A stretch of 64,000 bases of DNA from Clostridia bacterium (GCA_017510825.1 JAFWMA010000010.1:21647-85646), one strand, 5' to 3'; shown: positions 3,646 to 42,162, numbered from the stretch's first letter. Notes: a model not told the origin generated them from the sequence alone. Made by a program: numbers and translations.

Positions 3646-5193
3646 ATGGTAGATTATATAACGATAATAGGTGGAGGTTTAGCTGGGTGTGAAGCGGCTT
3701 ATCAAATTGCAAAAAGAGGAATAAAGGTGAAATTGTATGAGATGAAACCAGCTAAGTTTTCACCAGCTCATAGTAATGAAAATTTAGCTGAAATTGTGTG
3801 TAGCAATTCATTTAAGTCAGACTTGCTAACAAATGCATGTGGACTATTAAAAGAAGAACTACGAATGATGGATTCACTCCTAATAAAAATAGCAGATCAA
3901 ACAAAAGTCCCTGCAGGACAAGCACTAGCAGTAGATAGAGAGGAATTTGCTAAAAAAGTTACAGAAGAGATAAAAAACAATCCATTAATTGAAGTGATAA
4001 ATCAAGAGATTACATCAAAAGAAAGATTTGGAGACGCTTCTCAAATCTTACAAAACGAATCTCTAAGATTTGGAGATACTTCCCCAATTTTACAAAATAA
4101 AACTGCAGACTTGCCAAAAACCCCCGTCCCTAATGGCACTAATGGCAGGAATCTGCCAAAAACCTCCGTCCCTAATGGCAGATGCTTGGAAGAATTAATA
4201 GGAGAAGGAATCGTAATAATTGCAACAGGTCCATTAACATCAGATGCCTTATCAGAAGGAATTAGGAATCTAACAGGAGAGGAAGATTTACACTTCTACG
4301 ATGCTCAAGCTCCAATAGTTGAAAAAGATTCAATTGACTTTAATATAGCTTTTTATGGAAACAGATATGAACAAGAAAAGAAAAAAGATGAAACTATTGA
4401 ACAATGGAAAGAGAGATTAACTAATCAATCAGAAGAAACACAAAGTTATATAAACCTACTTATGAATGAAGAAGAATATAATAAATTTTATAATGAATTA
4501 ATTAATGCAGAAGTTGTAACACTAAGAGATTTTGAAAAACGAGAAATCTTTGAGGGATGTATGCCAGTTGAAATAATGGCTAAGAGAGGGATAGATACTT
4601 TAAGATTTGGGCCACTTAAGCCAGTTGGTTTTGATGATCCACGAACAGGAAGAAGGCCTTATGCAGTGGTTCAATTAAGACAAGACAATTCTCAAGGTTC
4701 ACTATATAATATTGTAGGATTCCAAACAAATTTGAAATTTGGAGAACAAAAGAGGGTATTTAGTATGATACCAGGATTAGAGAGTGCTAATTTTGTGAAA
4801 TATGGTGTGATGCACAGAAATACATTTATTAATTCAACTAGATTATTAGATAATACATATAATTTTAAGGAAAATAAAAACATTTACTTTGCTGGACAAA
4901 TTACAGGAGTAGAAGGGTATGTAGAATCAATTGCATCAGGATTAGTATCTGGTATAAATGCTGTAAGAAGCTATAAAGAAGAAGAAAAAATAATATTTGA
5001 TGAACAAACTATGTTAGGAGCATTAGCAAAATATATATCAACACCTAACGACAAGTTCCAACCAATGAATGCAAACTATGGAATTTTACCACCTTTGAAA
5101 GAAAAAATAAGAGATAAAAAGTTAAGGTACAAAACATTAAGCGAAAGAAGTTTAAAAATAATTCACGGTATGCTTTATGTAGTAGATAAGTGA
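3646..5193 (+). CDS. trmFO: Methylenetetrahydrofolate--tRNA-(uracil54-C5)-methyltransferase TrmFO, with in-frame insertions
   Basis: FAD fold IIGGGLAGCEAAYQ, VCSNS, FEGCMPVE, VGFQTNLKFGEQKRVF, GQITGVEGYVES; 515 aa versus ~435 aa for typical TrmFO. Confidence 0.93.
   Translation: MVDYITIIGGGLAGCEAAYQIAKRGIKVKLYEMKPAKFSPAHSNENLAEIVCSNSFKSDLLTNACGLLKEELRMMDSLLIKIADQTKVPAGQALAVDREEFAKKVTEEIKNNPLIEVINQEITSKERFGDASQILQNESLRFGDTSPILQNKTADLPKTPVPNGTNGRNLPKTSVPNGRCLEELIGEGIVIIATGPLTSDALSEGIRNLTGEEDLHFYDAQAPIVEKDSIDFNIAFYGNRYEQEKKKDETIEQWKERLTNQSEETQSYINLLMNEEEYNKFYNELINAEVVTLRDFEKREIFEGCMPVEIMAKRGIDTLRFGPLKPVGFDDPRTGRRPYAVVQLRQDNSQGSLYNIVGFQTNLKFGEQKRVFSMIPGLESANFVKYGVMHRNTFINSTRLLDNTYNFKENKNIYFAGQITGVEGYVESIASGLVSGINAVRSYKEEEKIIFDEQTMLGALAKYISTPNDKFQPMNANYGILPPLKEKIRDKKLRYKTLSERSLKIIHGMLYVVDK
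4024..4190. repeat. Repeat-derived in-frame block inside trmFO (2 x 42 nt + 2 x 42 nt)
   Basis: AGATTTGGAGACGCTTCTCAAATCTTACAAAA.../AGATTTGGAGATACTTCCCCAATTTTACAAAA... then two GCCAAAAACCYCCGTCCCTAATGGCA units; CCGTCCCTAATG is the reverse complement of CATTAGGGACGG in the glmS leader repeat. Confidence 0.75.
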
Positions 5194-8754: not shown

Positions 8755-9225
8755 GTGCCAAGAAAAGGATATGTAGCAAAAAGAGAAATTTTACCAGATC
8801 CTATATATAACAGTGTTAAAGTTACAAAGCTTATTAACAATGTTATGTTAGATGGTAAAAAGACTGTTGCACAAAAAATAGTTTATGATGCATTTGAAAT
8901 TATCAAAGAAAAAACTGGAAAAGATCCACTTGAAGTATTTGAAGAATCATTAAATCAAATTATGCCAGTTCTTGAAGTTAAAGCTAGAAGAATTGGTGGT
9001 GCAACATATCAAGTTCCACTTGAAATAAGACCTGAAAGAAGACAAACATTAGGTTTAAGATGGTTAGTTTTATTTGCTAGAAAAAGAAATGAAAAAACTA
9101 TGGCAGAGAGATTAGCAGCTGAAATAATGGATTCACTTGAAGGTAATGGTGGAGCTTTCAAGAAGAAAGAAGATATGCATAAGATGGCTGAGGCTAACAA
9201 AGCTTTTGCACACTACAAATTTTAA
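8755..9225 (+). CDS. rpsG: 30S ribosomal protein S7
   Basis: GTG start after AAGGAGGG; [20 protein letters not shown]... Confidence 0.98.
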
Positions 9226-9229
9226 AATT

Positions 9230-9397
9230 GCGGTGAAAAGTGTCGTTCTTTTGTATAACTTGCTTTTGACTCTAATTTTATAAAAAAATAAGAAGTAAAA
9301 AGCTATGTTCTACTGCGTTAAAATAATTTTCTAAGATCTCGACATACAGATGTATAGTTTTGTCCTTAAAAATTATTTTGCCTTGTATAACTTGCTT
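9230..9397. repeat. Composite of the same element family (core-deleted copy plus a ~90-nt copy)
   Basis: 9308-9397 matches 8210-8300 with only about 6-7 differences by eye; 9230-9270 joins the left end GTGAAAAGTGTC to the right end TGTATAACTTGCTTTTGAC. Confidence 0.75.
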
Positions 9398-9417
9398 CTA
9401 GCTTCCAAAAATATCAT

Positions 9418-9546
9418 AGTGAAAATAACATTTTCGCCAAAAACGAGTATTGCGAGGCAGAAAAAGGTTTTAAGTGTGAAATAGTATTTGAGGTACATTG
9501 AGGGCTTAAAAGATTTTTCTAACGAAGCAAGACGAAGTTTTTCACG
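9418..9546. repeat. Further palindromic element in the rpsG-fusA spacer
   Basis: AGTGAAAATAACATTTTCG...CGAAGTTTTTCACG outer arms; CGAGGCAGAAAAAGGTTTTAAG vs CTTAAAAGATTTTTCTAACGAAG inner arms. Confidence 0.55.
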
Positions 9547-9571
9547 AAAATTAGAAGAGAGGAGAAAATAA

Positions 9572-11665
9572 ATGGCTAACAGTGGAAGAGAGTTTCCTTT
9601 AGAGAAAACAAGAAATATAGGAATAATGGCTCACATTGATGCTGGAAAGACCACTACAACAGAAAGAATTTTATTTTATACTGGTAGAACTCACAAAATT
9701 GGTGAAGTTCATGATGGTCAGGCAACAATGGACTGGATGGCTCAAGAGCAAGAAAGAGGTATTACAATTACTTCTGCTGCAACAACTTGCCATTGGAGAG
9801 AACATAGAATTAATATAATTGATACTCCAGGTCATGTTGATTTTACAGTTGAAGTTGAAAGATCTCTTAGAGTTCTTGATGGTTCAGTGCTAGTATTAGC
9901 AGCTAAAGGTGGTGTGCAACCACAATCAGAAACAGTTTGGAGACAAGCTGATAAATATAAGGTTCCAAGAATCGTATATGTTAATAAAATGGATATTACA
10001 GGAGCAGATTTCTATCTTTGTATTGATCAAATGAGAGATAGATTAGGATGTCATCCTGTTCCAATACAATTACCAGTAGGTAAAGAGGATTATTTCCAAG
10101 GGATCGTTGATTTAATTAAGATGAAAGCTTATATTCAATCTGACGAAGACCAAGGAAAAGAAATCAAAGAGCAAGACATTCCAGCTGATATGCTTGAAGA
10201 AGCTCAAAAATATAGAGATGAGATGATCGAAGTTGTATCAGAACAAGATGATGAGTTAATGATGAAGTATTTGGAAGGTGAAGAACTAACTGAAGAGGAA
10301 ATCAGATTGGGTCTTAGAAAAGGAACAATTGCAAATAAAATAGTTCCAATGACTTGTGGTTCATCATATAAAAATAAAGGTGTTCAAGAATTGCTTGATG
10401 CTATTATTGACTACTTACCAGCACCAACAGATATTGAAGACGTTAAGGGTGTTGATGAAGATGGAAATGAAGTTACAAGAGCAACTGATGATAATGCACC
10501 ATTCTCAGCTTTAGCATTCAAGATTATGACTGACCCATTTGTAGGAAAATTATGTTTCTTCAGAGTTTATTCTGGAACATGTGATTCTGGTTCAACAATT
10601 TATAATGCTACAAAGCAAAAGAAAGATAGAATTGGAAGAATTCTATTAATGCATGCTAATAACAGGCAAGATATTGATAAAGTTTATGCTGGAGATATTG
10701 CTGCTGCAGTTGGACTTAAAGAAGTTGGAACTGGAGATACTTTATGTGATGCTGAAAACCCAGTTATACTTGAATCAATGGAATTTCCAGAACCTGTTAT
10801 AGATATTGCTATTGAGCCTAAAGATAAGGCAAATAGTGAAAAACTTGGTATTGCATTAGCAAAACTTGCAGAGGAGGATCCAACATTCAAAACGTGGACT
10901 GATAAAGAATCAGGTCAAACAATTATAGCTGGTATGGGTGAGCTTCATCTAGACATTATAGTTGATAGACTTAAAAGAGAGTTTAAAGTTGAATGTACAG
11001 AAGGAAAGCCTCAAGTTTCGTATAAAGAAACAATTAGAAATAAAGCTAGAGTACAAGGTAAGTTTGTACGTCAATCTGGTGGACATGGACAATATGGTGA
11101 TGTTTGGTTTGAAATGGAACCATTAGAGCCAGGTTCAGGAATTGTATTTGAGAACAAAATCGTTGGTGGTGCTGTTCCTAAAGAATACATTAAACCAGTT
11201 GAGGAAGGAATGAGAGAAGCTGCTTTAACAGGTATTCTTGCTGGATATCCTGTTATTGATTTCAAGGTTACATTAGTTGATGGATCATACCATGAAGTTG
11301 ACTCATCAGAAATGGCCTTCAAAGTTGCAGCATCTATTGCTTTTAAAGAAGGTTGTAAGCAAGCTAAATCAGCTCTATTAGAACCTATTATGAAAATTGA
11401 AGTAACTGTTCCTGAAGAATATATGGGAGATGTTATAGGAGATATTAATGCTAGACGTGGTAGAATGGAAGGTATGGAAGCACAATCTGGAAATCAAGTA
11501 ATTAGAGGATTTATTCCTTTATCAGAGATGTTTGGATATGCAACAGATCTACGTTCGAAAACACAAGGTAGAGGAACATATTCTATGGAACCATCTCATT
11601 ATGAAGAAGTTCCAAAATCTGTTCTTGATCAAATTGTTTCTGCTAGAAGCAAGAAAGAAGATTAA
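9572..11665 (+). CDS. fusA: Elongation factor G
   Basis: [17 protein letters not shown], 697 aa. Confidence 0.98.
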
Positions 11666-20011: not shown

Positions 20012-20029
20012 TTGAGTTTTAGCCATTAA

Positions 20030-20220
20030 GGACTGTCCAAAATTGCAAAGGTTTTGGAGAAAGATTGTCCAAAGTTGCAAATATTTTGCAAAAAAGGTTG
20101 TTCCAAGTTGCAAACGTTTTGCGAAAAAGGGTCATCCCAAACTGCAAACGTTTTGCGAAAAAGGGTCGTCCCAAACTGCAAATGTTTTGCAAAAAAGGGT
20201 CGTCCCAAATTGCAAAAAAA
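20030..20220 (+). repeat. Head-to-tail array of 5.7 units of the 33/34-nt REP-like repeat
   Basis: Units start at 20030, 20063, 20096, 20129, 20163, 20197; consensus GGGTCGTCCCAAACTGCAAACGTTTTGCGAAAAA; units become closer to consensus 5' to 3'. Confidence 0.9.
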
Positions 20221-20397
20221 TTCAATAAATTTCCAGTGTAAAAAATTAAAAAATGAACATCCTAAATATTGAAAAAGAATTAATTCATAATAATGAATTA
20301 CATTAGGTAAAAATTCTTATAGAGTAATTTGTTAATTAAATTGTTTTATTAGAATAATGCTTAAGCTTTTTCAAAAATATTTTAGGAGGTGTATATC

Positions 20398-20688: not shown

Positions 20689-21297
20689 TTATAGATAAGG
20701 TAGTTGTAAGTTTTTTGTAATTTCACTAAGAACAATGTCAAACTTTTCTTGTTTTGTAAGGTTGGTTGTATCCAATTTAAAGAAAGGCTGACTATATTGT
20801 TGCATAAAACTGTTTACAATATTGTTAAAGTGACTCACAAATCTGTAGGTTACAATTCTACCTTCTCCACCTCGTCGTTTGATTGCTTCTTCAGGTGTAG
20901 TAGTAAGATAGACAATTTGATCAGGGTTTGGAACTCCTGAATGTGTAAAAAATGCGTTGCATATTTCAAGGATTTCTCGAGATATAGCTTTTATGCTGTA
21001 ATAGTATTGGTTCCAAACCATTGAATCAACAATTCCTCTATCAATGAGGATAACATCATACTCTGTGCAGAATTTAGCTTCTAATAGTTTAGTCAAGGTG
21101 CGATATTTCATCCAAAAATGTGCTTCAATACTTCCTTTAGGAATAATTTCAGGAACTATTTCAGCAGATTCCCGAATTATCTCTACCGAAAAACTTTTAG
21201 AAAGTTCTTTTTTTAACTGATGTATCACTGATGTTTTTCCTGCTTCTGGTGTACCCAAAAATTCAATCATGTAGGGTGTAGATGGTTGTATATTCAT
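20689..21297 (-). CDS. P-loop kinase-like protein (deoxynucleoside-kinase-like)
   Basis: GTPEAGKTS Walker A, LIDRG, lid IKRRGGEGR. Confidence 0.7.
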   Translation of the reverse strand: MNIQPSTPYMIEFLGTPEAGKTSVIHQLKKELSKSFSVEIIRESAEIVPEIIPKGSIEAHFWMKYRTLTKLLEAKFCTEYDVILIDRGIVDSMVWNQYYYSIKAISREILEICNAFFTHSGVPNPDQIVYLTTTPEEAIKRRGGEGRIVTYRFVSHFNNIVNSFMQQYSQPFFKLDTTNLTKQEKFDIVLSEITKNLQLPYL

Positions 21298-24503: not shown

Positions 24504-26342
24504 TTATTCTACGGTTACTGATTTAGCTAAATTACGTGGCTTGTCAACATCAAGTTTTTTACATTTTGCAATGTGGTATGCTAGTAATTGTAAAGGAATT
24601 ACAGATAATACAGGTGAAATTAGAGAAGAGCAATCAGGTATTTTAACAATTGATTCTTCATTAATATTGCTTGAATTTATGTCAATATCTTGATTTGATA
24701 TAAGAATTATATTAGCTCCTCTTGTTACAACTTCATCTAGATTACTCAATGTTTTACTGCTTATTGAAGGATTTGTTATTATTCCAATTACTGAAACACC
24801 ATCTTCAATTAGTGCAATAGGTCCATGTTTAAGTTCACCAGCAGCATAGGCTTCTGAATGAATATAAGTTATTTCTTTAACTTTTAAAGAACCTTCCATA
24901 GCAACTGCATAATCATTTATTCTACCAATAAAGAACATATTTTTATCTTGATAAATTTGATTAGCTATGTTTTTTACTTTATCACAATTATCTAGTATAT
25001 ATTTTATTTTGTCAGGTAATTGATTAAGATCATTTTTTAATTTTTCAAAATCAGCTGTATTTGATAGTCCAAGCTTTTCAGATATGAATAAAGCTAGTAT
25101 TGTAAGTAATGTTACTTGACAAGTGTAAGCTTTAGTTGATGCAACTGCTATTTCAGGTCCTGCATGTGTATATAAAACAAAATCTGATATTCTTGTAATG
25201 GAACTTCCTATTACATTTACAATTGAAAGTGTAGTTGAGCCAGATTTTTTTGCTAGTTTTAGAGCAGCTATTGTATCAGCTGTTTCTCCTGATTGGCTAA
25301 TAAATATACATAGAGTTTTTTCATTAATTAAGGGATTTCTATATCTAAATTCTGAAGCCATATCAACTTCACAAGGAATTTGAGTAAATTTTTCAAAAAT
25401 ATATTTTGTTGCAATCCCAGCGTGCATTGCAGTTCCGCATGCGACTATATATATTTTATTATATTTATTTACATCTAAGCTGTTTAATGGTAAATTAATG
25501 TTTCCTTCTTTATTAAATGAAGTTCCAATTGTTTCACGAATAGCAGTTGGCTGTTCATAAATTTCTTTAAGCATATAATCATCATATCCATTTTTTTCAC
25601 TTGCTATAGCATCCCATTCAATGTTTTTTATTTCTTTTTCAATTATGTTTAAATCATAATTATAAAAAGTAATGGAGTCTTTTTTTACTTCTGCAATTTC
25701 ATAATCTTCCATAAAATAAAAATCTTTTGTATATGAAAGTATTGCAGGAATGTCAGATGCTATGTAGTTTTCGTTTTTACCAACGCCTATTACTACTGGG
25801 CTATCTTTTTTTACTACTATTATTTCATCTTTAAGTAAAGGTGAAGTGATTTCGAGTGCATAGCTACCTTCAAGTTTTTTTAAGGCTTCAGTAACAGCAA
25901 ATAATACTCCTTTTTTGGTGTTTTTATTGTAAAAGTAGTGGATTAAGTTAGGTATTAGTTCAGTATCAGTTTCAGAATGAAGTGCATATCCCTTTTTTTC
26001 AATGAATGATTTTAGCTCATCATAGTTTTCTATTATACCATTATGAACAACAGTAAATGTATTGTTGTTATCAGTATGAGGATGAGAGTTAATTTTAGAG
26101 GGCATACCTCTTGTTGCCCATCTTGTATGAGCAATGCCAATTGAACCTGTTAGAGATTCGAGTTCTGAGTTATCTTGTAATTTCTTTACTCTTCCCATAT
26201 CCTTAACTATTTTTAGAGAATTGTCATTGTTTAAAACAGCAAGCCCTGCTGAATCATATCCTCTGTACTCAAGTGAAAGCAATCCATTAATAAGCACTGG
26301 TACAGCTTTCTTTGTACCAATGTATCCAACGATTCCACACAT
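24504..26342 (-). CDS. glmS: Glutamine--fructose-6-phosphate aminotransferase
   Basis: True start MCGIVGYIG (ATG 26342) behind GGAGG; C-terminal ...AKSVTVE; 612 aa. Confidence 0.97.
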   Translation of the reverse strand: MCGIVGYIGTKKAVPVLINGLLSLEYRGYDSAGLAVLNNDNSLKIVKDMGRVKKLQDNSELESLTGSIGIAHTRWATRGMPSKINSHPHTDNNNTFTVVHNGIIENYDELKSFIEKKGYALHSETDTELIPNLIHYFYNKNTKKGVLFAVTEALKKLEGSYALEITSPLLKDEIIVVKKDSPVVIGVGKNENYIASDIPAILSYTKDFYFMEDYEIAEVKKDSITFYNYDLNIIEKEIKNIEWDAIASEKNGYDDYMLKEIYEQPTAIRETIGTSFNKEGNINLPLNSLDVNKYNKIYIVACGTAMHAGIATKYIFEKFTQIPCEVDMASEFRYRNPLINEKTLCIFISQSGETADTIAALKLAKKSGSTTLSIVNVIGSSITRISDFVLYTHAGPEIAVASTKAYTCQVTLLTILALFISEKLGLSNTADFEKLKNDLNQLPDKIKYILDNCDKVKNIANQIYQDKNMFFIGRINDYAVAMEGSLKVKEITYIHSEAYAAGELKHGPIALIEDGVSVIGIITNPSISSKTLSNLDEVVTRGANIILISNQDIDINSSNINEESIVKIPDCSSLISPVLSVIPLQLLAYHIAKCKKLDVDKPRNLAKSVTVE

Positions 26343-26389
26343 GTGAAAACCTCCTTTATATAGGTTCACAGCTAGGTGATGTTGAATTT

Positions 26390-26739
26390 GTTACAAACTA
26401 TTTTCAATTTGAGAAATAATTTTTTTATTGTAGTTTGCTTTTTGCCAACATCTCTTGACAGTAGCATGCCATAGAATCATCCGCCGAATATTTCGATAAA
26501 TTCTATCCTCGTCAGCTGAGAAAATTAGGTCACTGGGGACGGAGCACTTGGCCCACTTTTGGGTCATTAGGGACGGAGCATTTTAGTTAAAATTAGAACA
26601 ATAAAGCAATAAGTAGATTTGTTTTATTATATTTATTGACTTGTTGGGACAGATTTAATTAAAAAGCTCTGTCCCTAATGACCCAAAAGTGGGCCAAATG
26701 CTCCGTCCCCAGTGACCTAATTTTCTCAGCTCTGGCGCT
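26390..26739 (-). ncRNA. glmS ribozyme (cis-regulatory) with greatly enlarged P1
   Basis: Minus strand A|GCGCCAGAGCU...AGCUGACGAGGAUAGAAUUUAUCGAAAUAUUCGGCGGAUGAUUC plus a downstream P4-like hairpin GCAAACUAC...AUAGUUUGU; located in the glmS 5' UTR. Confidence 0.85.
26514..26731. repeat. Inverted doublet of GGGACGGAGC-type repeat units (66-bp arms, 86-nt loop)
   Basis: 26514-26579 vs reverse complement of 26666-26731 differ at 2 of 66 positions. Confidence 0.92.
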
Positions 26740-26765
26740 TGATATTATTTTGTGACCTAACATAT

Positions 26766-29121: not shown

Positions 29122-29856
29122 ATGACATTAGCTTTTGCGACCTCAGATGTGGGAAAAGCCCGAGAAATAAATGAAGATTACTTTTTTATTAGCTTTCCAG
29201 ATGATCCAGTTCAAATATATATAGTAGCAGATGGAATGGGTGGATATAATGGTGGAGAAGTTGCTAGCAGACTAGCTGTTGATACTGCCAAAAAATATAT
29301 TTTAAGTAATTATGAAAAGGTTAATAAAAATAGAGAATCTTTAATTGAATTAGTTAAGAATAGTACTCAATATGCTAATATGGTTGTGTATGAAAAGGCT
29401 CAATCTAGAAAAGAGCTAAATAAAATGGGAACAACTTTGGATGTTTGCTTGATTCATCAAAATAGAGCTTTTATTTCACATATTGGGGATAGTAGAATTT
29501 ATAGATTAAGAAAAGAGTTTTTTAGAAGATTAACTAAAGATCATTCTTATGTACAACAGTTAGTTGATGAAGGAAAAATTTCTAAACAAGAAAGCTTAAA
29601 TCATCCAGATAAAAATATGTTGATGAAAGCATTAGGGGTATCATCTTTTATTGAACCAGATGCAATGGTAAAAGGATTTCTAAAAGGTGATGTAATATTA
29701 ATGTGTTCAGATGGATTATCAAATATGGTATCTGAAAAAGATATTGTGAGAATTATTAAAGAAAATCCAACAGATGCTACAAAAATGCTTGTTCAAACAG
29801 CAAATGATAATGGAGGAAGAGACAATATAACTGCAGTGTTGCTAAGAAGTCAGTAA
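29122..29856 (+). CDS. stp: PP2C-family Ser/Thr phosphatase
   Basis: ADGMGG, DSRIY, SDGL, DNITAV motifs; precedes prkC. Confidence 0.92.
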   Translation: MTLAFATSDVGKAREINEDYFFISFPDDPVQIYIVADGMGGYNGGEVASRLAVDTAKKYILSNYEKVNKNRESLIELVKNSTQYANMVVYEKAQSRKELNKMGTTLDVCLIHQNRAFISHIGDSRIYRLRKEFFRRLTKDHSYVQQLVDEGKISKQESLNHPDKNMLMKALGVSSFIEPDAMVKGFLKGDVILMCSDGLSNMVSEKDIVRIIKENPTDATKMLVQTANDNGGRDNITAVLLRSQ

Positions 29857-29912
29857 TTTTGCAATTTGGGACGACCTTTTTCAGCAAAAAAATTGCAATT
29901 TAGGACACTCCT
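29857..29912 (-). repeat. Two REP-like units (reverse orientation) immediately after the stp stop
   Basis: TTTTGCAATTTGGGACGACCTTTTT and TTGCAATTTAGGACACTCC; a further palindrome TGCAAAAAAACTGCATTTTTTTGCA lies at ~29955-29985. Confidence 0.85.
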
Positions 29913-30032
29913 TATTGTGTAAAATTGAAAAAATAATTGAGTAATTAAAAAGGTCTGCAAAAAAACTGCATTTTTTTGCATAAAGCCTGTATTTAATTGC
30001 ATGTTTAACCTTAATGAAAGGAAATAAAAAAA

Positions 30033-32264: not shown

Positions 32265-33647
32265 ATGGTAGAAAATATGGAAACTTTGGTATCACTTTGC
32301 AAAAATAGAGGATTTGTTTATCCAGGGTCAGAAATCTATGGGGGATTAGCAAATTCATGGGATTATGGACCTCTAGGGGTTGAACTTAAAAACAATATTA
32401 AGGAAGCTTGGAGAAAGAAATTTGTACAGGAACAAAAAAATATTGTTGGATTAGATTCTGCAATTATAATGAATCCAGAGGTATGGGTTGCATCAGGTCA
32501 TGTTGGAGGATTTTCAGATCCACTAATTGATTGTAAAAATTGCAAAACCAGACATAGAGCGGATAAATTAATAGAAGAATGGGCTCACGAAAATGGTAAT
32601 GATATGATTGCTGATGGAATGAGTAATGAAGAACTAATTAACTTTATCAAGGAAAATTCTATTCCATGTCCTAATTGCGGGAAAACAAATTTTACAGATA
32701 TTCGCAAATTTAATTTATTGTTTAAAACATCTATTGGTGTTACAGAAGATAATAAGTCTGAAGTTTATTTAAGAGGTGAAACTTGTCAAGGAATTTTTGT
32801 TAATTTTAAAAATATTATTAGAACTTCAAGAAAAAAAGTTCCAATGGGTATTGCTCAAATTGGAAAAGCATTCAGAAATGAAATAACTCCTGGAAATTTT
32901 ATTTTTAGAACTCGTGAATTTGAACAAATGGAACTTGAATTTTTCTGCAAACCAGGAACAGATTTAGAATGGCATAAATACTGGAAAGAGTTTTGTAAAA
33001 ATTGGTTATTAAGTTTAGGTATAGAAGAAGGAAATATTAGACTTCGTGACCATTCAAAAGAGGAATTGTCATTTTACAGTAATGCTACAACAGATATAGA
33101 ATTTGCATTCCCGTTTGGATGGGGAGAACTTTGGGGAATTGCTGATAGAACGGATTATGATTTAAAACAGCATGCAGAATATTCAAAGCAAGACTTATCA
33201 TACTTAGATCCAACAACAAACGAAAAGTATATTCCGTATGTAATTGAACCATCACTTGGAGTTGATAGAGCAATGCTTGCAATACTATGTAACGCATATG
33301 AGTTGCAAGAGTTAGAAGATGGAGATAGCAGGGTTGTAATGCATTTACATCCAGTACTATCACCTTTCAAATTAGCAGTTTTACCATTATCTAAAAAATT
33401 GAGTGATAAAGCAAACGAAGTTCATGAAAAATTATCAAAGAAATTTAATTGCGACTATGATGAAACAGGCTCAATTGGAAAAAGATATAGAAGAGAAGAT
33501 GAAATAGGTACGCCTTTCTGTGTAACAGTAGATTTTGATACACTAGAGGACAATCAAGTAACAGTAAGAGATAGAGACACAATGGAACAAATCAGAATGC
33601 CTATTGTTGAAGTAGAGAGATATATAAGTGAGAAAATAGAATTTTAA
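32265..33647 (+). CDS. glyQS: Glycyl-tRNA synthetase (alpha2 type)
   Basis: [32 protein letters not shown], 460 aa; exact start (32265/32277/32280) uncertain. Confidence 0.95.
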
Positions 33648-33656
33648 TGTGTATAG

Positions 33657-33743
33657 TAAGGGATGACTCTTTGTGTGTAGTTATATAATACAATAAAAAT
33701 CAAAGAAGGTATAAAACAAATATGACTAAGGGATAGCGCTTTG
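33657..33743 (-). repeat. Two degenerate REP-like remnants
   Basis: TAAGGGATGACTCTTTG (33657-33673) and TAAGGGATAGCGCTTTG (33727-33743) resemble TTTGGGATGACCCTTTTT of the array. Confidence 0.4.
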
Positions 33744-33751
33744 AAAAAATT

Positions 33752-33942
33752 ATGCCAGAATATTTAAAACATGATATAGACGAATATATGAAATATCAAG
33801 ATGATCCAGCATGTACTGTTATTGCTTGCTTGATGAGATTTATGGCTCGACTAATTCAGCATATTGGGATAATGAAATTTCAGAAGAGCAAGCAAACTAT
33901 TTAAGAGACAAATATTATTTTAGACATGGGAAGGATAAATAA
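33752..33942 (+). pseudogene. Possible frameshifted small gene
   Basis: MPEYLKHDIDEYMKYQDDPACTVIA... continues plausibly in the +2-shifted frame as LLDEIYGSTNSAYWDNEISEEQANYLRDKYYFRHGKDK*. Confidence 0.3.
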
Positions 33943-34074
33943 TGGAATTAGTAAATTTTTCAAGTTGCAGAATAGATAACACTAGAATTTGAGCTTGTCA
34001 AGTTTAGTGTGGTGCGACTGTGCGAAGAAGGATGCGAAGAGTGACACCTACTTTTTGACTTAACATAATTAGAT

Positions 34075-34139
34075 ATGTCAATATATAGCAATAACTAAAA
34101 AAGCTAATTGCTACATATTGACATTTTATTTTGTGTTTT
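34075..34139 (+). terminator. 18-bp AT-rich hairpin + T-tract (terminator-like)
   Basis: ATGTCAATATATAGCAAT / ATTGCTACATATTGACAT (1 mismatch) followed by TTTATTTTGTGTTTT. Confidence 0.5.
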
Positions 34140-34189
34140 GAGGGACACTTTCCGAAAACAGGTCATTGCTGTTTGTGAAAGGTGTCTCC
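34140..34189. repeat. GGGACAC-type palindromic element
   Basis: GAGGGACACTTTCCGAAAACAG pairs with CTGTTTGTGAAAGGTGTCTCC; resembles the AGGACACTCC variant at 29903. Confidence 0.5.
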
Positions 34190-34235
34190 AGAAACATCAC
34201 CTAAAATACTTTTTTCACAAATCTTTCTTAAAGTA

Positions 34236-34264
34236 TTGCCACGAAAGGTAAAAAATGATAAAAT
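34236..34264 (+). promoter_or_regulatory. Candidate ileS promoter
   Basis: TTGCCA-17 bp-TAAAAT. Confidence 0.5.
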
Positions 34265-34317
34265 ATAATGGCGAATATAGTAAAAAAACAACTTTAGACA
34301 GAGAGAGGAGAATTGCT

Positions 34318-37107
34318 ATGAGTGAAGAAAAGAAAAATTATGGTGAAACTTTAAACTTGCCAAAAACTGATTTTCCAATGAGAGGAGGGCTTCCTAAAAA
34401 AGAGCCTGAAATTCAAAAAGAAGTTTTTGAGAATGGATTATATGAAAAAGTATTAAAGAAAAATGCAGGACATGATCATTATGTGTTGCATGATGGACCT
34501 CCATATGCAAATGGAGAAATTCATGCAGGGCATGCATTAAATAAAGTTTTAAAAGATACTATAATTAGATATAAATCAATGAGAGGATATTATTCTCCTT
34601 TTATTCCAGGGTATGATACTCATGGAATGCCAACTGAAAAGAAAGCAATTGAAAAATTAGGATTAGATAGAAATAAAATTCCTGTAACAAAATTTAGAGA
34701 TACTTGTAAGGAATTTACGGCTAACTACAAGGATGTTCAAACAGAAGGATTTAAAAGACTTGGTGTTCTAGCAGACTGGGATAATCCATATATAACTTAT
34801 GATACAAAAATGGAAGCAAGGCAAATTGGTATTTTTGGTGATATGTACAAAAAGGGATACATCTATAAAGGATTGAAACCAGTGTACTGGTGTACTGACT
34901 GCGAAACTGCATTAGCAGAAGCAGAGATTGAATATAAAGATTTAACATCAACATCTGCATATGTAAAATTTCTAGTTGATGACGCAAAAGGTGTATTTGA
35001 ATGTAAAGATGTTTCATTTGTAATTTGGACCACAACACCATGGACTTTGCCAGGAAACACAGGTATTACGATAGGAAAAGATTTTGAATATAGCTTAGTA
35101 AAGGTTACATATCCAGAAGGACTAAAAGCTCTAGATGGAACTGATTCAGAGAAATTAATTATTGCAACAGAATTGCTTGGAAAAGTAATGGAATTAGCAG
35201 GAATTGAAGAATATAGAACAGTAAAAACATATAAGGGAAGTGAACTTGAGGGAATTCTTTGTAAACATCCATTTTTAGATAGAACTTCAAAAGTTGTTAT
35301 GGGAAGCGAAGTAACAGTAAATGTTGATTTAGAAGAAGGAACGGGTTGTGTTCATACAGCACCTAGCTATGGTAAAGAAGACTATGCACAGGGATTGAAG
35401 GATAATTTACCAATTATAGTTACTGTAAATGGAAAAGGAATTCAAGGAGAAGGAGCTGGTCCATTTAATGGAATGTTTTATGCTAAATCAAATAAAGAAA
35501 TTGTAAAGTGGCTTGAAGAAAACAATTATTTACTTAAAGAAACAAAAATAGAGCATTCATATCCACATTGTTGGAGATGTAAGAAACCTGTTATATTCAG
35601 AGCAACAGATCAATGGTTTGCTTCAATTGATGGGTTTAGAGATGATGTTTTGAAAGCTATAAAAACTGTTACATGGCACCCAGACTGGGGTGAAGACAGA
35701 ATGACTGAAATGATAAAGGGAAGAAATGATTGGTGTATATCAAGACAACGTACATGGGGAGTTCCACTTCCAATATTCTATTGTAAAGATTGCAATGAGC
35801 CTTATGTAACAGAGGAATCAATTAACAAAATTCAAAATATAGTAAAAGATGAAGGCACAAATGTATGGTGGGATAAAGATGCAAAAGACTTAATGCCAAC
35901 AGGAGCAAAATGTGCAAAATGTGGTTGTACAGAATTTATAAAAGAAAAAGATATTATGGATGTATGGTTTGACTCAGGATCAACACATCAAAGTGTATTA
36001 GTTGAAAGAGGACTAGACTATCCAGCTGACTTATATTTAGAAGGAAATGACCAATATAGAGGATGGTTCCAATCTTCATTACTTACTTCAGTTGCAACAA
36101 AGAATAAAGCTCCATATAAAGAGGTTTTATGTTGTGGAATGGTTGTAGATGGTGAAGGAAAGAAAATGTCTAAAAGTTTAGGGAATGGAATTGCGCCTGA
36201 GGTAGTTTGTAGCAAGTATGGTGCAGATATAATGAGACTTTGGGCTTTATCATCTGATTATGCATTAGATGTTAACTTATCAGATGATATATTAAAAGGT
36301 ATTTCAGATGTATATAGAAAAATTAGAAATACTGCAAGATATATTTTAGGAAATACATTTGATTATAATCCAGATGAGCCTGTTGATTATGAAGATTTAG
36401 AAGAAATAGACAGGTGGGCACTAACAAGATTAAATAGATTAATAGATAATTGTATAAAAGAATATGATAGATTTAATTTTAAAGCATGTTATCATCATGT
36501 AAACCAATTTTGCGTAGTTGATATGAGTAGTTTTTATCTAGATATAATAAAAGATAGATTATATACTGAAAAAGCAGATTCAATATTAAGAAAGTCTGCA
36601 CAAACAACAATGTATTATATTTTAGATGCTTTAGTAAAAATATTAACACCTATGACTTGCTTTACTGCAGAAGAAATATGGAAAGAAATGAAACATACTA
36701 AAGAAGAAAAAGTTGAAAGTCCAATGCTAACAGATTATCCAGAAGTAAATTTTAAATGGAGTGATGAAAAGTTAGCTAAAAAATGGGAAAAGATTATTGA
36801 GATAAAAAATATAGTATCTAAGCAATTAGAATTATCAAGAGCAGAAAAAATGATAGGAAATGCATTGGATGCTCAAGTAACAATAAGAGCTAATCAAGAA
36901 GAATATAAATTTTTGAAAGAAAATGAAAAACTAGTTAAAGAATCATTAATAGTTTCAGAATTAAAACTAGTAGCAAAGGATAATTTAAAGGAGATTGAAG
37001 TATCAGTTGCACATGCAAATGGTGAAAAATGTGAAAGATGTTGGCAATATCATGAACATTTAACAAAAGAAGGATTGTGTAATCGTTGTGCAAAAGTTTG
37101 CAGTTAG
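34318..37107 (+). CDS. ileS: Isoleucyl-tRNA synthetase
   Basis: Start ATG 34318 after GAGAGGAG (MSEEKKNYGETLNLPKTDFPMRG); HAGH (HIGH-type), KMSKS, C-terminal CERCW...CNRC. Confidence 0.96.
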   Translation: MSEEKKNYGETLNLPKTDFPMRGGLPKKEPEIQKEVFENGLYEKVLKKNAGHDHYVLHDGPPYANGEIHAGHALNKVLKDTIIRYKSMRGYYSPFIPGYDTHGMPTEKKAIEKLGLDRNKIPVTKFRDTCKEFTANYKDVQTEGFKRLGVLADWDNPYITYDTKMEARQIGIFGDMYKKGYIYKGLKPVYWCTDCETALAEAEIEYKDLTSTSAYVKFLVDDAKGVFECKDVSFVIWTTTPWTLPGNTGITIGKDFEYSLVKVTYPEGLKALDGTDSEKLIIATELLGKVMELAGIEEYRTVKTYKGSELEGILCKHPFLDRTSKVVMGSEVTVNVDLEEGTGCVHTAPSYGKEDYAQGLKDNLPIIVTVNGKGIQGEGAGPFNGMFYAKSNKEIVKWLEENNYLLKETKIEHSYPHCWRCKKPVIFRATDQWFASIDGFRDDVLKAIKTVTWHPDWGEDRMTEMIKGRNDWCISRQRTWGVPLPIFYCKDCNEPYVTEESINKIQNIVKDEGTNVWWDKDAKDLMPTGAKCAKCGCTEFIKEKDIMDVWFDSGSTHQSVLVERGLDYPADLYLEGNDQYRGWFQSSLLTSVATKNKAPYKEVLCCGMVVDGEGKKMSKSLGNGIAPEVVCSKYGADIMRLWALSSDYALDVNLSDDILKGISDVYRKIRNTARYILGNTFDYNPDEPVDYEDLEEIDRWALTRLNRLIDNCIKEYDRFNFKACYHHVNQFCVVDMSSFYLDIIKDRLYTEKADSILRKSAQTTMYYILDALVKILTPMTCFTAEEIWKEMKHTKEEKVESPMLTDYPEVNFKWSDEKLAKKWEKIIEIKNIVSKQLELSRAEKMIGNALDAQVTIRANQEEYKFLKENEKLVKESLIVSELKLVAKDNLKEIEVSVAHANGEKCERCWQYHEHLTKEGLCNRCAKVCS

Positions 37108-37151
37108 AGGGAGCGCAATTTTTGCAATTTGGGACGACCATTTTTTGCAAG
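37088..37151 (-). repeat. REP-like units overlapping the ileS 3' end and flanking the RAYT gene (left flank)
   Basis: GCAAAAGTTTGCAGTTAGAGGGAGCGC then CAATTTTTGCAATTTGGGACGACCATTTTTTGCAAG. Confidence 0.85.
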
Positions 37152-37262
37152 AATTTTGAAAAAACTTAAAATATGATTATGATATATGTTTATAAATAAT
37201 ATTAATTAATGATTAGTAAATAAGTGGGGGTATTATTCTAATCAAAGATTGGAGGTAATAGT

Positions 37263-38006
37263 ATGCCTAGAATTTCTAGAGAATCATTAATAGGGAAAAA
37301 TGTTTTTCATGTTATGACACAGGGAATAAAAAAAGAGAACATTTTTAAATATGAAAGAAAAAAATATGAATATATTAAACTAATGAAAAAACTAAAAGAT
37401 GATTATAATATAAAATTGATTTCATATTGTATGATGGATAATCATGCGCATATATTAATTAATACAAGTAAAATAAAAAGTATGACTGAGTTTATGCACA
37501 AATTAAATACACTATATGGAATTTATTATAATAAAAGTTTAGATAGAATAGGTTATGTTTTTAGGAATAGATTTGAAACTCAGCCAATCATAAATATTAG
37601 TTATTTGCATAACTGTATACTATATATACACAATAATCCTGTCAAAGCAGGAATTTGTGAAAATGCTAAGCAATATAAGTTTTCTAGCTATTATTATTTC
37701 TATAAAGAAAACAATAATATCTTTAAAAGATTGTTTAAAAATCTTAATGAATATAATATGGCGCATAAGAGGGCTATTAGAAAAGTCTATTTAATAGAAG
37801 ATGAAGACGATGTAAAAAGAGAAATTGTGAGCGAAATTACGGAGTACCTTAGATTAAATAAAAGAAATAAAATAGAGTTAAAAGCGGATAAGGAATTATT
37901 GAAACCAATTGCTAAAAGATTAAAAAATATCTATGGTCTCTCAAATGAAAAAAATGGTAAATATTTAGATGTTAGTAGAGAAAAAATAAGATATATTTTA
38001 AAATAG
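37263..38006 (+). CDS. REP-associated tyrosine transposase (RAYT; HUH/Y1, IS200-like fold) with C-terminal HTH-like tail
   Basis: HUH motif MMDNHAHILI, catalytic-Tyr motif LYIHNNPVKAG, YVFRNRF; flanked by inverted REPs; no tnpB partner. Confidence 0.85.
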   Translation: MPRISRESLIGKNVFHVMTQGIKKENIFKYERKKYEYIKLMKKLKDDYNIKLISYCMMDNHAHILINTSKIKSMTEFMHKLNTLYGIYYNKSLDRIGYVFRNRFETQPIINISYLHNCILYIHNNPVKAGICENAKQYKFSSYYYFYKENNNIFKRLFKNLNEYNMAHKRAIRKVYLIEDEDDVKREIVSEITEYLRLNKRNKIELKADKELLKPIAKRLKNIYGLSNEKNGKYLDVSREKIRYILK

Positions 38007-38007
38007 A

Positions 38008-38128
38008 GGGGGACCTTTTAGAAAAAGTTTGATAAAAAAGATGGGCTATTTTAACGAAAGTTTGCTAAAATAGGTCGTCCCAAATTGCAATTTTTTGCTA
38101 AAAAGGGCTGTTCTAAATGACAAAGAGG
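38008..38128 (+). repeat. Array of four ~32-33-nt REP-like units (right flank of RAYT)
   Basis: Units at 38008, 38040, 38073, 38105; the third is near-consensus, the others degenerate. Confidence 0.8.
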
Positions 38129-38136
38129 ACGTGGAA

Positions 38137-39243
38137 ATGAAACTTAGTGAATTTAATTATGATTTGCCTGAAGAACTGATTGCTCAAGTTCCAATTCAGA
38201 ATAGAGACCAGTCAAGATTGATGGTATTAGATAGAAAGAGTAAAAAAATTGAAGATAGAATTTTTAAAGAGATAATTGAATATTTAGAGCCAGGAGACTG
38301 TTTGGTAAGAAATAATACTAAAGTTATTCCTGCAAGATTATATGGAAAAAAAGAAACTGGTGCAAATGTTGAGTTTGTCCTTTTAAAAAATATAGAAGGT
38401 GATATTTGGGAAGCGATGGTAAGACCGGGAAATAAACTTCATTCTGGTGCTAAGGTGTTCTTCGAAATAGAAAACAAACAGAAAGTGGAGCTTAGAGAGT
38501 CTGAAAACAAAATATCTAATAAGAATATAGATAATGTAGAGAAAAGTTCTAAAACATTGTTAGTTGCAAAAATTCTTAGTTCCACTGATGATGGAACAAG
38601 AATTGTAAAGTTTTCTTATAATGGAATTTTTAATGAAATTCTTGATCAAATTGGGTTAATGCCATTACCACCATATATTCACGAATCTTTAAAGGAAAAA
38701 GATAGATATCAGACAGTTTATGCTAAATATAATGGATCTGCAGCGGCTCCAACAGCAGGACTTCATTTTACTCCAGAGCTTATTGATAAAATTAAAAAAA
38801 AGGGAGTTGAAATTGCAAATGTAACTTTGCATGTTGGGATTGGGACTTTTAGACCTGTTAAAGAAGAGAATATTGAAGATCATAAAATGCATACTGAGCA
38901 TTATCAAATAAAAAAGGAAGATGCTGATAAAATTAATAAAGCAAAAAGAGATGGAAAAAAAGTAATTGCAGTTGGAACAACATCTTGTAGAACTTTGGAA
39001 TCTGTTGCAGATGTAAATGGAATTGTAAAAGAATGTGAGGGAGATACCGGTATTTATATATATCCTGGATATAAATTTAAATGTGTTGATTCTTTAATAA
39101 CTAATTTTCATTTACCAGAATCAACATTGATAATGTTAGTTTCTGCATTTGCGGGAAGAGAGTATGTAATGGAAGCATATAGGTATGCTGTGAATGAAAA
39201 GTATAGATTTTTTAGTTTCGGTGATGCAATGCTTATTAAATAA
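38137..39243 (+). CDS. queA: S-adenosylmethionine:tRNA ribosyltransferase-isomerase
   Basis: Start ATG 38137 ([17 protein letters not shown]); the track start at 38095 lies inside the REP array; C-terminal [11 protein letters not shown]. Confidence 0.95.
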
Positions 39244-39255
39244 TAAAACAAATGA

Positions 39256-40464
<1,209 letters not shown>

Positions 40465-40467
40465 AAT

Positions 40468-42162
40468 ATGGCTTTAATCCAAGAAGAATCAAATAATAAC
40501 GAAAATAAAGTCAAGAGTTTAAAACATAGTTTAATTGTTATTATTATTTTTGCTTTTTTACTAATTATCGTAGCAATTGTAATTTATGTTTATTCTATTA
40601 ATGTAGCTACTGTACAACGTAAGGTATTAATTGATGGGACAAGTAATACAAAACTTGCAAATGATGAGGATGTTTTTATTGTTGAAAATGATAAAGTATA
40701 TACTTCTATAAAACTGATAGCAGATGCTATAGGTTATAAGTTTTATCCAGGTGAATATCAACAATATACAGAGGATGAATCAAGTTGCTATGTTACTAAT
40801 CAAAAAGAATTAGTAACTTTTACTGCAGGGTCAAAAGAAATAAGAAAATATCCTCAGCTTTCTAAGTCTGAGTCACAATTATTTGATTTAGATGAAGAAG
40901 TTCAGGATAGAAAGAATAGCCTTTACTTAAGTGAAAAAGGAATGGAAAGAGCATTTAATACAATAGTTAAGTATACAAAGGATAATAATACAATTTCATT
41001 AACTACCTTAGGATATTTAACAACTAATGTTACTACTCAAGTTAAAAATGCGTATTTAATAAAAAAAGAAGGTGAAACTGAAAATAATGAAATGACAGAA
41101 TCTATTTTGTTTAATAATCAAAAAGCATTATTAGCTAATTTAGTTGTTACACAAAATGATAGTACAAAGTTGTTTGGAGTTACAAAAACAACAAATGGTG
41201 AAATGAATAGTATTATTTCAGAAAGATATAAGGTGATTGAATTTATTGAGGGAGCGAATGATTTTATTGTAAAGACTGAAGATAATAAATATGGAATTAT
41301 TGGAAATGAGGGATTTCCAAAAATAAAACCTGCTTATGACGAAATACAAGAACTTGATAAGGATTTGGGATTGTATTTAGTAACAAGTAATGGAAAACAA
41401 GGTGTTGTAAATCAAAATGGAAATGATATTGTATATCAAGAATATGATCAAATTGGTTTAGATGCTGATAATGGAGACAAAAATGTTAAAAATAGATATT
41501 TATTGTATGGCAATTGTATTCCTGTTAAATTAGATAAAAAATGGGGGTTGATTGATAAAAATGGAAATAAGATATTAAATATAGAATATGATGGTATAGG
41601 ATGTAAACTTTCTTCAACTCAAGCAAATACTACTGGAATTGTTTTAATACCAGATATGGAAGCTATTGTTGTTGAACAGGATATGAAAAAGGCAGATGGC
41701 AATTCGGTAGTGAAAAAATATGGAATTGTAAATTCTAAAGGAGAAAAGATTACTGATATTGCTGCAGATTCAGCATATGCAATTACTATAGATAATAAGG
41801 TTACATATTATTTATCTGTGGATAATCAGATGATTGATATTGTTGAGTTTTGGAATAAGTATAAATATGGTAATAATAATCAAACAGAAAATCCACAACA
41901 GCAATCTCAGGAACAGCAACAATTAGAACAGCAACAATTGCAACAGCAACAATTAGAACAGCAACAATTGCAACAGCAACAATTAGAACAACAACAATTG
42001 CAACAGCAACAATTAGAACAACAACAATTGCAACAGCAACAATTGCAACAACAACAATTGCAACAACAACAATTGGAACAGCAACAATTGGAACAGCAAC
42101 AACAACAGCAACAGCAACAAACAGAACAACAGTTTTTACAGTATTCTCAATTTGTTAATTAG
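40468..42162 (+). CDS. Membrane-anchored WG-repeat protein with C-terminal poly(QQQLE/Q) tail
   Basis: N-terminal TM; KYGIIGNEG, KQGVVNQNGNDI, KWGLIDKNGNKI, KYGIVNSKGEKI repeats. Confidence 0.85.
   Translation: MALIQEESNNNENKVKSLKHSLIVIIIFAFLLIIVAIVIYVYSINVATVQRKVLIDGTSNTKLANDEDVFIVENDKVYTSIKLIADAIGYKFYPGEYQQYTEDESSCYVTNQKELVTFTAGSKEIRKYPQLSKSESQLFDLDEEVQDRKNSLYLSEKGMERAFNTIVKYTKDNNTISLTTLGYLTTNVTTQVKNAYLIKKEGETENNEMTESILFNNQKALLANLVVTQNDSTKLFGVTKTTNGEMNSIISERYKVIEFIEGANDFIVKTEDNKYGIIGNEGFPKIKPAYDEIQELDKDLGLYLVTSNGKQGVVNQNGNDIVYQEYDQIGLDADNGDKNVKNRYLLYGNCIPVKLDKKWGLIDKNGNKILNIEYDGIGCKLSSTQANTTGIVLIPDMEAIVVEQDMKKADGNSVVKKYGIVNSKGEKITDIAADSAYAITIDNKVTYYLSVDNQMIDIVEFWNKYKYGNNNQTENPQQQSQEQQQLEQQQLQQQQLEQQQLQQQQLEQQQLQQQQLEQQQLQQQQLQQQQLQQQQLEQQQLEQQQQQQQQQTEQQFLQYSQFVN
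41911..42120 (+). repeat. Coding tandem repeat, 15-nt period (30-nt super-period)
   Basis: (GAACAGCAACAATTA/CAACAGCAACAATTG)n, ~14 units, encoding QQQLE/QQQLQ. Confidence 0.9.

Follow-up and report, generated by a model that had tools for sequence, protein, structure and literature searches.

Does the small transposase gene at 37263-38006 of this Clostridia bacterium sequence (GCA_017510825.1, JAFWMA010000010.1:21647-85646) belong to an insertion sequence (IS), or does it form a REPtron, that is, a gene for a REP-associated tyrosine transposase (RAYT) bracketed by inverted copies of its own repetitive extragenic palindrome (REP)? We addressed this question within the whole stretch of 64,000 nucleotides, hereafter called the window, whose positions are counted from its first letter. 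The first-pass annotation had decided for a REPtron and against a copy of IS200/IS605, and this decision was borne out by protein scores closer to TnpAREP than to IS200/IS605 TnpA, by the single copy of the gene in the window, by synteny with queA and tgt and by the architecture of the flanks. The best explanation overall, and in our judgement a clearly probable one, is that the locus represents a REPtron of the RAYT subtype bearing a helix-turn-helix (HTH) domain, known as TnpAY1 subclass 2.1.2 or TIRYT and probably belonging to Group 1 of Bertels. The gene is chromosomal, present in single copy and vertically inherited. Of all transposases domesticated together with a population of non-autonomous repeats, those of REP/RAYT systems are the best case. 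Detailed work on them concerns nearly exclusively Proteobacteria, and in the phylum of this locus such systems have hardly been looked at; the locus and its relatives provide a clean example, from Bacillota, of the RAYT subtype that is understood least.

The open reading frame (ORF) is preceded by ileS (34255-37107) and followed by queA, the real start of which is the ATG at 38137, and then by tgt. A profile search with Y1_Tnp, as called for by the first-pass annotation, returned a Pfam match at E 1.8e-9. Both the HUH and the catalytic-tyrosine motif that had been recognized in the 247-aa product turned out to be invariant: in 36 aligned homologs, H61, H63, Y121, N125, P126 and S141 were fully conserved (H61-A-H63; Tyr motif YIHNNPVKAG), and catalysis is therefore under selection. 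The distance between H61/H63 and Y121 amounts to 58-60 residues. The protein consists of an N-terminal Y1/HUH nuclease domain (residues ~1-145, including H61-A-H63, Y121 and S141), a linker and a helical C-terminal HTH domain (~181-246). In agreement with this, the AlphaFold (AF2) model, with a mean predicted local distance difference test (pLDDT) score of 88.9, displayed an N-terminal alpha/beta domain and a helical C-terminal domain, with a low-confidence linker at residues ~171-180. The HTH-like nature of the tail, suspected from the sequence, was further supported by matches to HTH families among the 36 homologs (Sigma70_r4 in 9/36, HTH_23 in 5/36 and HTH_28 in 2/36). A profile of the C-terminal region matched Xre-like HTHs as well as regions 3-4 of FliA (E 8.5e-4). 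An identity with domain IV of DnaA found no support, as the C-terminal profile yielded generic HTH matches alone and no match to DnaA.

The Y1/HUH site and the tyrosine are intact, and in three comparisons the protein resembled E. coli TnpAREP more closely than the TnpA proteins of IS200/IS605. Against the NCBIfam model REP_Tyr_transpos (NF047646) it reached 57.3 bits (cut-off 80), compared with 17.8 bits against transpos_IS200 (NF033573; cut-off 55). The best PDB match of the family profile was E. coli TnpAREP (4ER8, E 7.6e-5), spanning YIxxNPVKxG and the serine motif, while ISDra2 TnpA remained at E 0.58. Foldseek with the AF2 model likewise placed 4er8_A on top (E 8.5e-7, 152 columns), with the ISDra2 and IS608 TnpA structures at ~2e-4 or weaker. 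Sequence identity with E. coli TnpAREP in the structural alignment is 14%, and the segment aligned to its GTAG-reading IWQPRFW (the W/Q/R motif, IWQxRFW) reads VFRNRF and holds no tryptophan. The protein has about 400 homologs of equal length, which stem almost exclusively from gut and rumen metagenomes, the closest one outside the species being 62% identical. As had been stated, there is no tnpB partner: neither tnpB nor a second Y1 gene was found in the 64-kb window.

We then considered the repeat that flanks the gene (Table 1). The 18-mer TTGCAATTTGGGACGACC (37122-37139) recurs at 38073-38090 as its exact reverse complement, and the inverted repeat extends beyond this core to 29 nt with 90% complementarity. 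An nhmmer model of the unit, derived from the tandem array and applied at a threshold of E<0.01, detected 12 units in five clusters: 20029-20228 (six units), 29856-29912 (two), 37117-37139, 38073-38102 and 39271-39319 (two). The recurrences first reported at 20030-20220, 29857-29912 and 39266-39320 are thus recovered at almost the same positions. All five clusters lie just past stop codons or between genes, and each contains one intact unit with increasingly degenerate neighbours. In the array, correctly described beforehand as head-to-tail, decay grows with distance from the intact unit at 20196. The period, originally given as 33 nt, is 34 nt according to Tandem Repeats Finder (5.4 copies, 84% matches), and a supposed unit overlapping the 3' end of ileS (37087-37105) had to be dropped, since it was not significant in the unit model (E 3.2). 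The doublet at 29852-29918 consists of the two kinds of unit that also make up the gene flanks in relatives. Written out, the window unit reads TTTTGCAAAAAAGGGTCGTCCCAAATTGCAAAA; the repeat is an imperfect palindrome of ~34 nt with a conserved tag, GGGAC[G/A], at the apex of the hairpin. The 64 kb contain only 23 GGGAC/GTCCC pentamers, most of which mark repeat elements. Within the window, with 12 units in 5 clusters as against one gene, the repeat reaches beyond the gene and is mostly extragenic.

Table 1. Coordinates of the transposase gene, its repeat units and related elements in the window
Feature	Position	Strand	Remarks
RAYT-like gene, 247 aa	37263..38006	+	ORF call, Pfam, NCBIfam, homolog alignment, PDB profile, AF2, Foldseek
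Left flanking unit TTGCAATTTGGGACGACCATTTTTTGCAA	37122..37150	+	GGGACG on the sense strand of the gene, 132 nt upstream of ATG
Right flanking unit, inverted copy of the left (29 nt, 90%; core 18/18)	38062..38090	-	CGTCCC on the sense strand, 71 nt past the stop codon
Right-flank cluster: intact unit and two degenerate units (38030-38063, 38098-38131)	38030..38131	-	ends just before the queA ATG at 38137
Promoter-like site TTGAAA-16-TATGAT	37156..37183	+	between left repeat and gene; consensus match alone
Doublet between queA and tgt	39256..39323	-	~35 nt upstream of the tgt start, where relatives have the right-flank doublet of their RAYT gene
Head-to-tail array, 6 units, 34-nt period	20028..20229	-	between convergent gatB and ORF 20689-21297
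Doublet: GGGACGACC unit, then GGACACTCC unit	29852..29918	+	starts at the stop codon of a PP2C phosphatase gene
Sister family, GGGACGGAGC units, 34-nt spacing	26514..26731		218-nt near-palindrome; two inverted doublets (REPIN-like) in the P1 loop of the glmS ribozyme
Sister family in trmFO (3646-5193)	4023..4180		four units, 42-nt period, two of them TGCCAAAAACCYCCGTCCCTAATGGCA

In a genome of 29% G+C (29.4% in the window) with many A/T runs and with A/T-rich unit stems, one might ask whether the inverted 18-mers are a low-complexity coincidence, and the resemblance due to chance or to an assembly artefact. This explanation is already refuted. At up to 3 mismatches, TTGCAATTTGGGACGACC has 8 matches in the window compared with 0.02 expected from dinucleotide-preserving shuffles, and the core is precisely the G+C-rich part of the unit. 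Moreover, the sequence was assembled independently in many samples, and the architecture recurs in 77 homologous loci of other species.

These loci came from a scan of one genome per GTDB species, which retrieved 467 relatives; the best 80 were kept and gave 79 distinct loci, mostly from metagenome-assembled genomes (MAGs) of uncultured Clostridia. For 77 genes, the flanks were long enough to count the polarity of the tag within 160 nt on each side. On the sense strand, GGGAC was present upstream in 63/77 and GTCCC downstream in 58/77, while the opposite orientations occurred in 5 and 3 of 77, respectively, against a background of 0.046 per 160 nt. Inverted repeats of 17 to 30+ nt flanked the gene in most of the loci. 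The bracketing by inverted repeat copies, first claimed from the window alone, is thus a conserved trait of the family. The consensus of the flank units, tGnCAAtAGGGACGGnCCTTTTTGnCA, is an imperfect palindrome with an asymmetric centre, and 152/155 units carry GGGAC[G/A] (GGGACG in 106 and GGGACA in 46). Folded as single-stranded DNA, the 155 units were more stable than shuffled sequences (-4.97 vs -1.66 kcal/mol; Wilcoxon 7e-22), with the tag residing in the terminal loop in 95 of them. The unit of one relative, GAGTCAAAAGGGACGGCCTTTTTTGACTC, forms a cleaner hairpin than that of the window. Stems vary between protein clades and the apex stays constant, a pattern that would follow from the co-evolution of each enzyme with a repeat of its own. 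In the closest relatives, each side consists of two units 33-35 nt apart, the outer one bearing GGGACG and the inner one GGGACA. Given a score below the NCBIfam cut-off, the missing W/Q motif, the lack of GT[AG]G at the foot of a hairpin that is tagged at its apex, and the C-terminal HTH, the protein is not a canonical RAYT of the GTAG type.

The genomic context also speaks for domestication. The window contains one copy of the RAYT-like gene. For the exact protein, the order ileS-gene-queA-tgt was present on 10/10 contigs listed, the other 13 of the 23 read being grouped as similar places. In 13 genomes the interval between queA and tgt holds orthologs of 40-55% identity, which together with the window gene form one clade in a neighbour-joining tree. 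The gene order is queA-RAYT-tgt in the relatives and RAYT-queA-[doublet]-tgt in the window (38137-40464 compared with loci L011-L021). The doublet left in the queA-tgt spacer has both the position and the orientation of the right flank of the relatives. It has the appearance of a remnant of the orthologous right flank, and a local rearrangement at the queA locus, possibly mediated by the repeats, is therefore suggested. Paralogs within a genome were 36-45% identical, each with its own repeat stems, and near-identical paralogs were absent from all 7 genomes analyzed. Distant matches confined to the N-terminal domain were found in 15 of 72,556 plasmid records, and the phage collection contributed one phage-like metagenomic contig with a full-length match of 30%.

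Two side observations concern these homologs. In two relatives, the first RAYT gene is followed ~4-6 kb downstream by another, divergent paralog of 38-40% identity to it, with flanking units of its own (CGGAACGCTAGGGACACTCC); the pairs are 2814-3572 and 9603-10379 in L011, and 8992-9750 and 14161-14937 in L017, and the window has no counterpart there. The full-length 30% homolog resides at 1185-1931 of MT835484.1, the unannotated record of a 70.8-kb contig from human faeces labelled 'Bacteriophage sp.'; the viral nature of this contig is putative.

An autonomous, IS-like 'TIRtron' that still transposes as a unit would account for part of these data as well. The inverted flanks would then be its ends, and the solo repeats would be by-products of a selfish element, akin to miniature inverted-repeat transposable elements (MITEs). 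Together with its flanks, the gene indeed forms a compact, transposon-like unit of ~970 bp; it lies upstream of queA here and downstream in relatives, and one full-length homolog sits on the phage-like contig. Subclass 2.1.2 is patchily distributed, as mobile elements are (Quentin 2018, PMC6006769), and among the RAYT groups it is Group 1 that comes closest to an IS, with duplicates at 6% and a few copies on plasmids (Bertels 2017, PMC5581495). The earlier statement that the gene has no IS-like termini is a matter of definition, as the flanking inverted repeats can be read as termini, namely the terminal inverted repeats (TIRs) of Di Nocera. Nevertheless, we regard this scenario as improbable and rejected an IS-like lifestyle in view of the copy number, the synteny and how rarely plasmids and phages carry the family. 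The gene occurs once in the 64 kb and a further 19 kb, its context is identical on every contig listed for the exact protein, its linkage to queA/tgt has persisted across orthologs of a single clade that are 40-55% identical, none of the 7 genomes holds near-identical paralogs, and the few plasmid matches are distant and N-terminal only. Single-copy occurrence, synteny, divergent paralogs and rarity on plasmids and phages are traits of domesticated RAYTs, not of insertion sequences. Likewise, the profile score, the single copy and the lack of tnpB among the neighbours separate the protein from TnpA of IS200/IS605.

A REPtron is expected to have copies of its repeat elsewhere in the genome. The cognate 20-mer has further copies beyond the gene flanks in about a third of the 20-kb loci, and a scan with AAAAGGGACGRCCYTTTT gave at least 10 matches on four contigs of the MAG of one relative (CANSJQ01). 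The relatives also contain at least nine gene-less pairs, 105-522 nt apart, with the polarity of the gene flanks. Six of these pairs were folded and formed long hairpins of the type [outer unit][inner unit]-spacer-[inner'][outer']. These gene-less inverted doublets are the termini of the gene without the gene, in the manner of MITEs or of REPINs (REP doublets forming hairpins).

The first-pass annotation had further listed variants of the unit at 4024-4190, 26514-26731, 33657-33743 and 34140-34189, none of which matched the unit model. The elements at 4024-4190 and 26514-26731 are built from a different unit (...TTAGGGACGGAGC...). A ribozyme and a coding sequence therefore do contain elements of the general kind proposed; these belong, however, to sister families (GGGACGGAG) and have only the GGGACG core in common with the gene-flanking unit. 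The glmS ribozyme at 26415-26750 (minus strand; 60 bits), located upstream of glmS (24504-26369), bears an insertion of 197 nt in its P1 loop, compared with 8 nt in the consensus. The arms of the near-palindrome found there (26514-26615 and 26630-26731; unit ...GGTCAYTRGGGACGGAGCA...) are 86% complementary, and the insertion is built like the gene-less inverted doublets. The units at 4023-4180 are read in frame and constitute an insertion of ~57 aa in a GIDA-family flavoprotein of 515 aa, which we take to be TrmFO; its Pfam GIDA match is split in two. Here the period is 42 nt, a multiple of three, compared with 34 nt for intergenic units. The segment at 33657-33743 carries GGGAT, not GGGAC, is not convincingly related and was rejected as a variant. 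The one at 34140-34189 is a separate GGGACAC hairpin in the ileS leader, with a strong inverted repeat (GAGGGACACTTTCCGAAAACAG...CTGTTTGTGAAAGGTGTCTCC); a search of 33600-34300 gave no credible match to a T-box or any other Rfam family. In sequence of the same genome outside the window, two one-off GGGAC hairpins of other types, for example TGTGCAATTAGGGACAGGCACTTTCTGCACA, occupy intergenic positions (L147:5368 and L145:17908). Apparently, several small families tagged with GGGAC coexist in this genome. Annotators should be aware that such repeats can inflate structured RNAs, as in the P1 loop of glmS, and proteins, as in TrmFO. A tandem repeat of another kind occurs in the gene at 40468-42162. 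The 564 aa encoded there include WG_beta_rep motifs and, at the end, a long (QQQLE)n tract; the latter corresponds to a 15/30-nt repeat (41910-42131, 95% matches) inside which several metagenome contigs break.

A more far-reaching reading is that the HTH-bearing RAYTs of gut Clostridia run a genuine REPIN-type system, in which the hairpins bear the recognition tag at the apex and not at the foot, two-unit doublets are the building blocks, and derivatives have reached structured RNAs and coding sequences. We put this forward tentatively, as a reading somewhat short of even chances. If true, REP recognition here would form a distinct class, active to this day, in which the additional HTH may do the reading.

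The location of the repeats invites yet another explanation, according to which they are primarily host elements, such as weak bidirectional terminators, stabilisers of mRNA 3' ends or operators for the HTH, with the flank copies serving autoregulation and the Y1 domain no longer mobilising anything. In favour of this view, every copy in the window either follows closely on a stop codon or separates two genes of the same operon; GGGACGNCCC and the T-run after it look, in relatives, like a small terminator; the HTH gives the protein a means of binding DNA; and enterobacterial REPs are known to have such host roles (PMC3733652). However, a consensus terminator scan of 36900-39500 called none at any of the copies covered, and a function as intrinsic terminators was rejected for these. 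A purely regulatory role is also at odds with the HUH and tyrosine residues being invariant in 36 homologs, with the decaying units in the arrays, and with stems that turn over between species around a constant apex tag. The sister elements in a ribozyme loop and in frame in trmFO are likewise what one would expect from insertion and not what regulation calls for. Taken together, host elements appear to us an unlikely primary identity for the repeats.

For the REPtron we thus favour, a mechanism can be proposed by analogy. The protein, which carries an HTH at its C-terminus and is encoded between inverted copies of its cognate repeat, would act on single-stranded DNA as an endonuclease and ligase of the Y1/HUH type. 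As single-stranded DNA, the repeat would adopt a weak hairpin exposing the strand-asymmetric tag GGGAC[G/A] (CGTCCC on the other strand) at its apex, and GGGACG may be the recognition tag. With the HUH-bound metal and Tyr121, the enzyme would pass through a 5'-phosphotyrosine intermediate, as has been shown for E. coli TnpAREP and IS608 TnpA, and would copy or excise repeats in trans on single-stranded hairpins. The non-autonomous copies, i.e. singles, head-to-tail doublets and arrays as well as the REPIN-like inverted doublets of relatives and sister families, would be incapable of moving by themselves. The HTH might bind the duplex repeat or target the protein to the fork, and the system may still be active. 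The locus offers a concrete substrate for the corresponding biochemistry.

Several observations weigh against this interpretation. The protein falls below the curated RAYT cut-off, and the chemistry assumed for subclass 2.1.2 is carried over from E. coli TnpAREP and IS608. The unit of the window itself folds weakly because its A/T-rich stem is interrupted, which makes structure-dependent recognition less obvious than in the relatives. The repeat count covers the window and an additional 19 kb of the same genome, which contained no further unit copies and no second RAYT. In public collections of genomes and metagenome contigs, GGTCGTCCCAAAYTGCAA returned single matches only, scattered over mostly unrelated taxa, which by our estimate is about the chance number for collections of that size. 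The species is therefore not represented in these collections, and the repeat is lineage-specific. The differing position relative to queA implies some local movement or rearrangement. Finally, no insertion polymorphism is visible, as ten further contigs from this organism match the window at 99.96-100% identity.

Among known systems, the catalytic domain finds its best match, in sequence and structure, in E. coli TnpAREP (RayT/YafM), the partner of REP and of bacterial interspersed mosaic elements (BIMEs; 4ER8; Ton-Hoang 2012; Messing 2012, PMC3479197). Both are single-copy chromosomal genes with inverted repeat flanks and an intergenically dispersed repeat, and they share Y-I-x-x-N-P-V-K-x-G and the serine motif. 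They differ in that the protein described here is only 14% identical, scores 57 bits against the NCBIfam cut-off of 80, has VFRNRF in place of the W/Q motif and an additional C-terminal linker and HTH of ~100 aa, and is associated with hairpins that have no GT[AG]G at the foot. The REPIN-RAYT systems of Pseudomonas (Bertels and Rainey 2011, PMC3116915; Group 2/3, PMC5581495) resemble ours in vertical inheritance, the lack of identical duplicates, one repeat family per paralog, and a non-autonomous partner composed of two inverted repeats that fold into a long hairpin. However, the RAYT group is a different one (probably Group 1 here), and head-to-tail arrays are prominent in the window. With TnpA of IS200/IS605 (IS608, ISDra2), the protein has the HUH/Y1 fold and presumably the single-stranded DNA chemistry in common; what sets it apart is a far weaker match, the absence of tnpB, inverted ends instead of direct subterminal hairpins, and a single copy with conserved synteny. 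The REPs tagged with CGTC have been reported without a dedicated transposase (Di Nocera 2013, PMC3733652). The complementary strand here reads CGTCCC, so that every unit presents CGTC beside a short palindrome that is A/T-first. In those REPs, mostly from Alphaproteobacteria, the tag lies unpaired at the end of a stem of 8-9 bp that bears a CCA tail, whereas here it is apical, and a link based on four shared bases at different hairpin positions is speculation.

The closest counterparts are the RAYT-like genes with long inverted repeats (core GGGG[AT][CG]A[CG]) that Di Nocera, De Gregorio and Rocco described in 2013 and named TIRYT/TIRtrons, the repeats of which form moderately abundant families of singles, dimers or clusters (PMC3733652). 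Quentin et al. (2018) equated TIRYT with TnpAY1 subclass 2.1, which is characterized by a C-terminal HTH (Bac_DnaA_C, HTH_23 or HTH_28), a serine motif just past the Tyr helix, a HuH-Tyr spacing of 58-67 residues and a divergent W/Q/R motif, and reported it without REP-like sequences (PMC6006769). Group 1 RAYTs have the widest distribution, including Clostridia, and their flanking 16-mers occur in ~12 copies per replicon (Bertels 2017, PMC5581495). The protein of the window agrees with subclass 2.1.2 in its HTH, in its serine motif and in the spacing from HuH to Tyr, and it is these architectural features that assign it there. Y1/HUH combined with a C-terminal HTH and the serine motif, inverted flanks with a G-rich core, repeats as singles, dimers or clusters, and several divergent paralogs per genome with their own repeats are common to both. 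In contrast, the published examples in the main text are from Proteobacteria and Acidobacteria, and ours from low-GC gut Clostridia; the literal GGGG[AT][CG]A[CG] fits 7/155 flank units, compared with 152/155 for the overlapping core GGGAC[G/A]. Imperfect-palindrome hairpins, two-unit doublets with a 33-35-nt period and REPIN-like inverted doublets further distinguish the clostridial loci. The HTH-bearing subtype is already in the literature; this is not a new kind of system, and its novelty is weaker than first assumed. What the present analysis adds to it is a polarity rule that holds across the family, the GGGAC[G/A] tag at the apex, the two-unit doublet, the insertions in glmS and trmFO, and REPIN-like derivatives in the form of gene-less inverted doublets, of which the 2018 survey had found none for the subclass.

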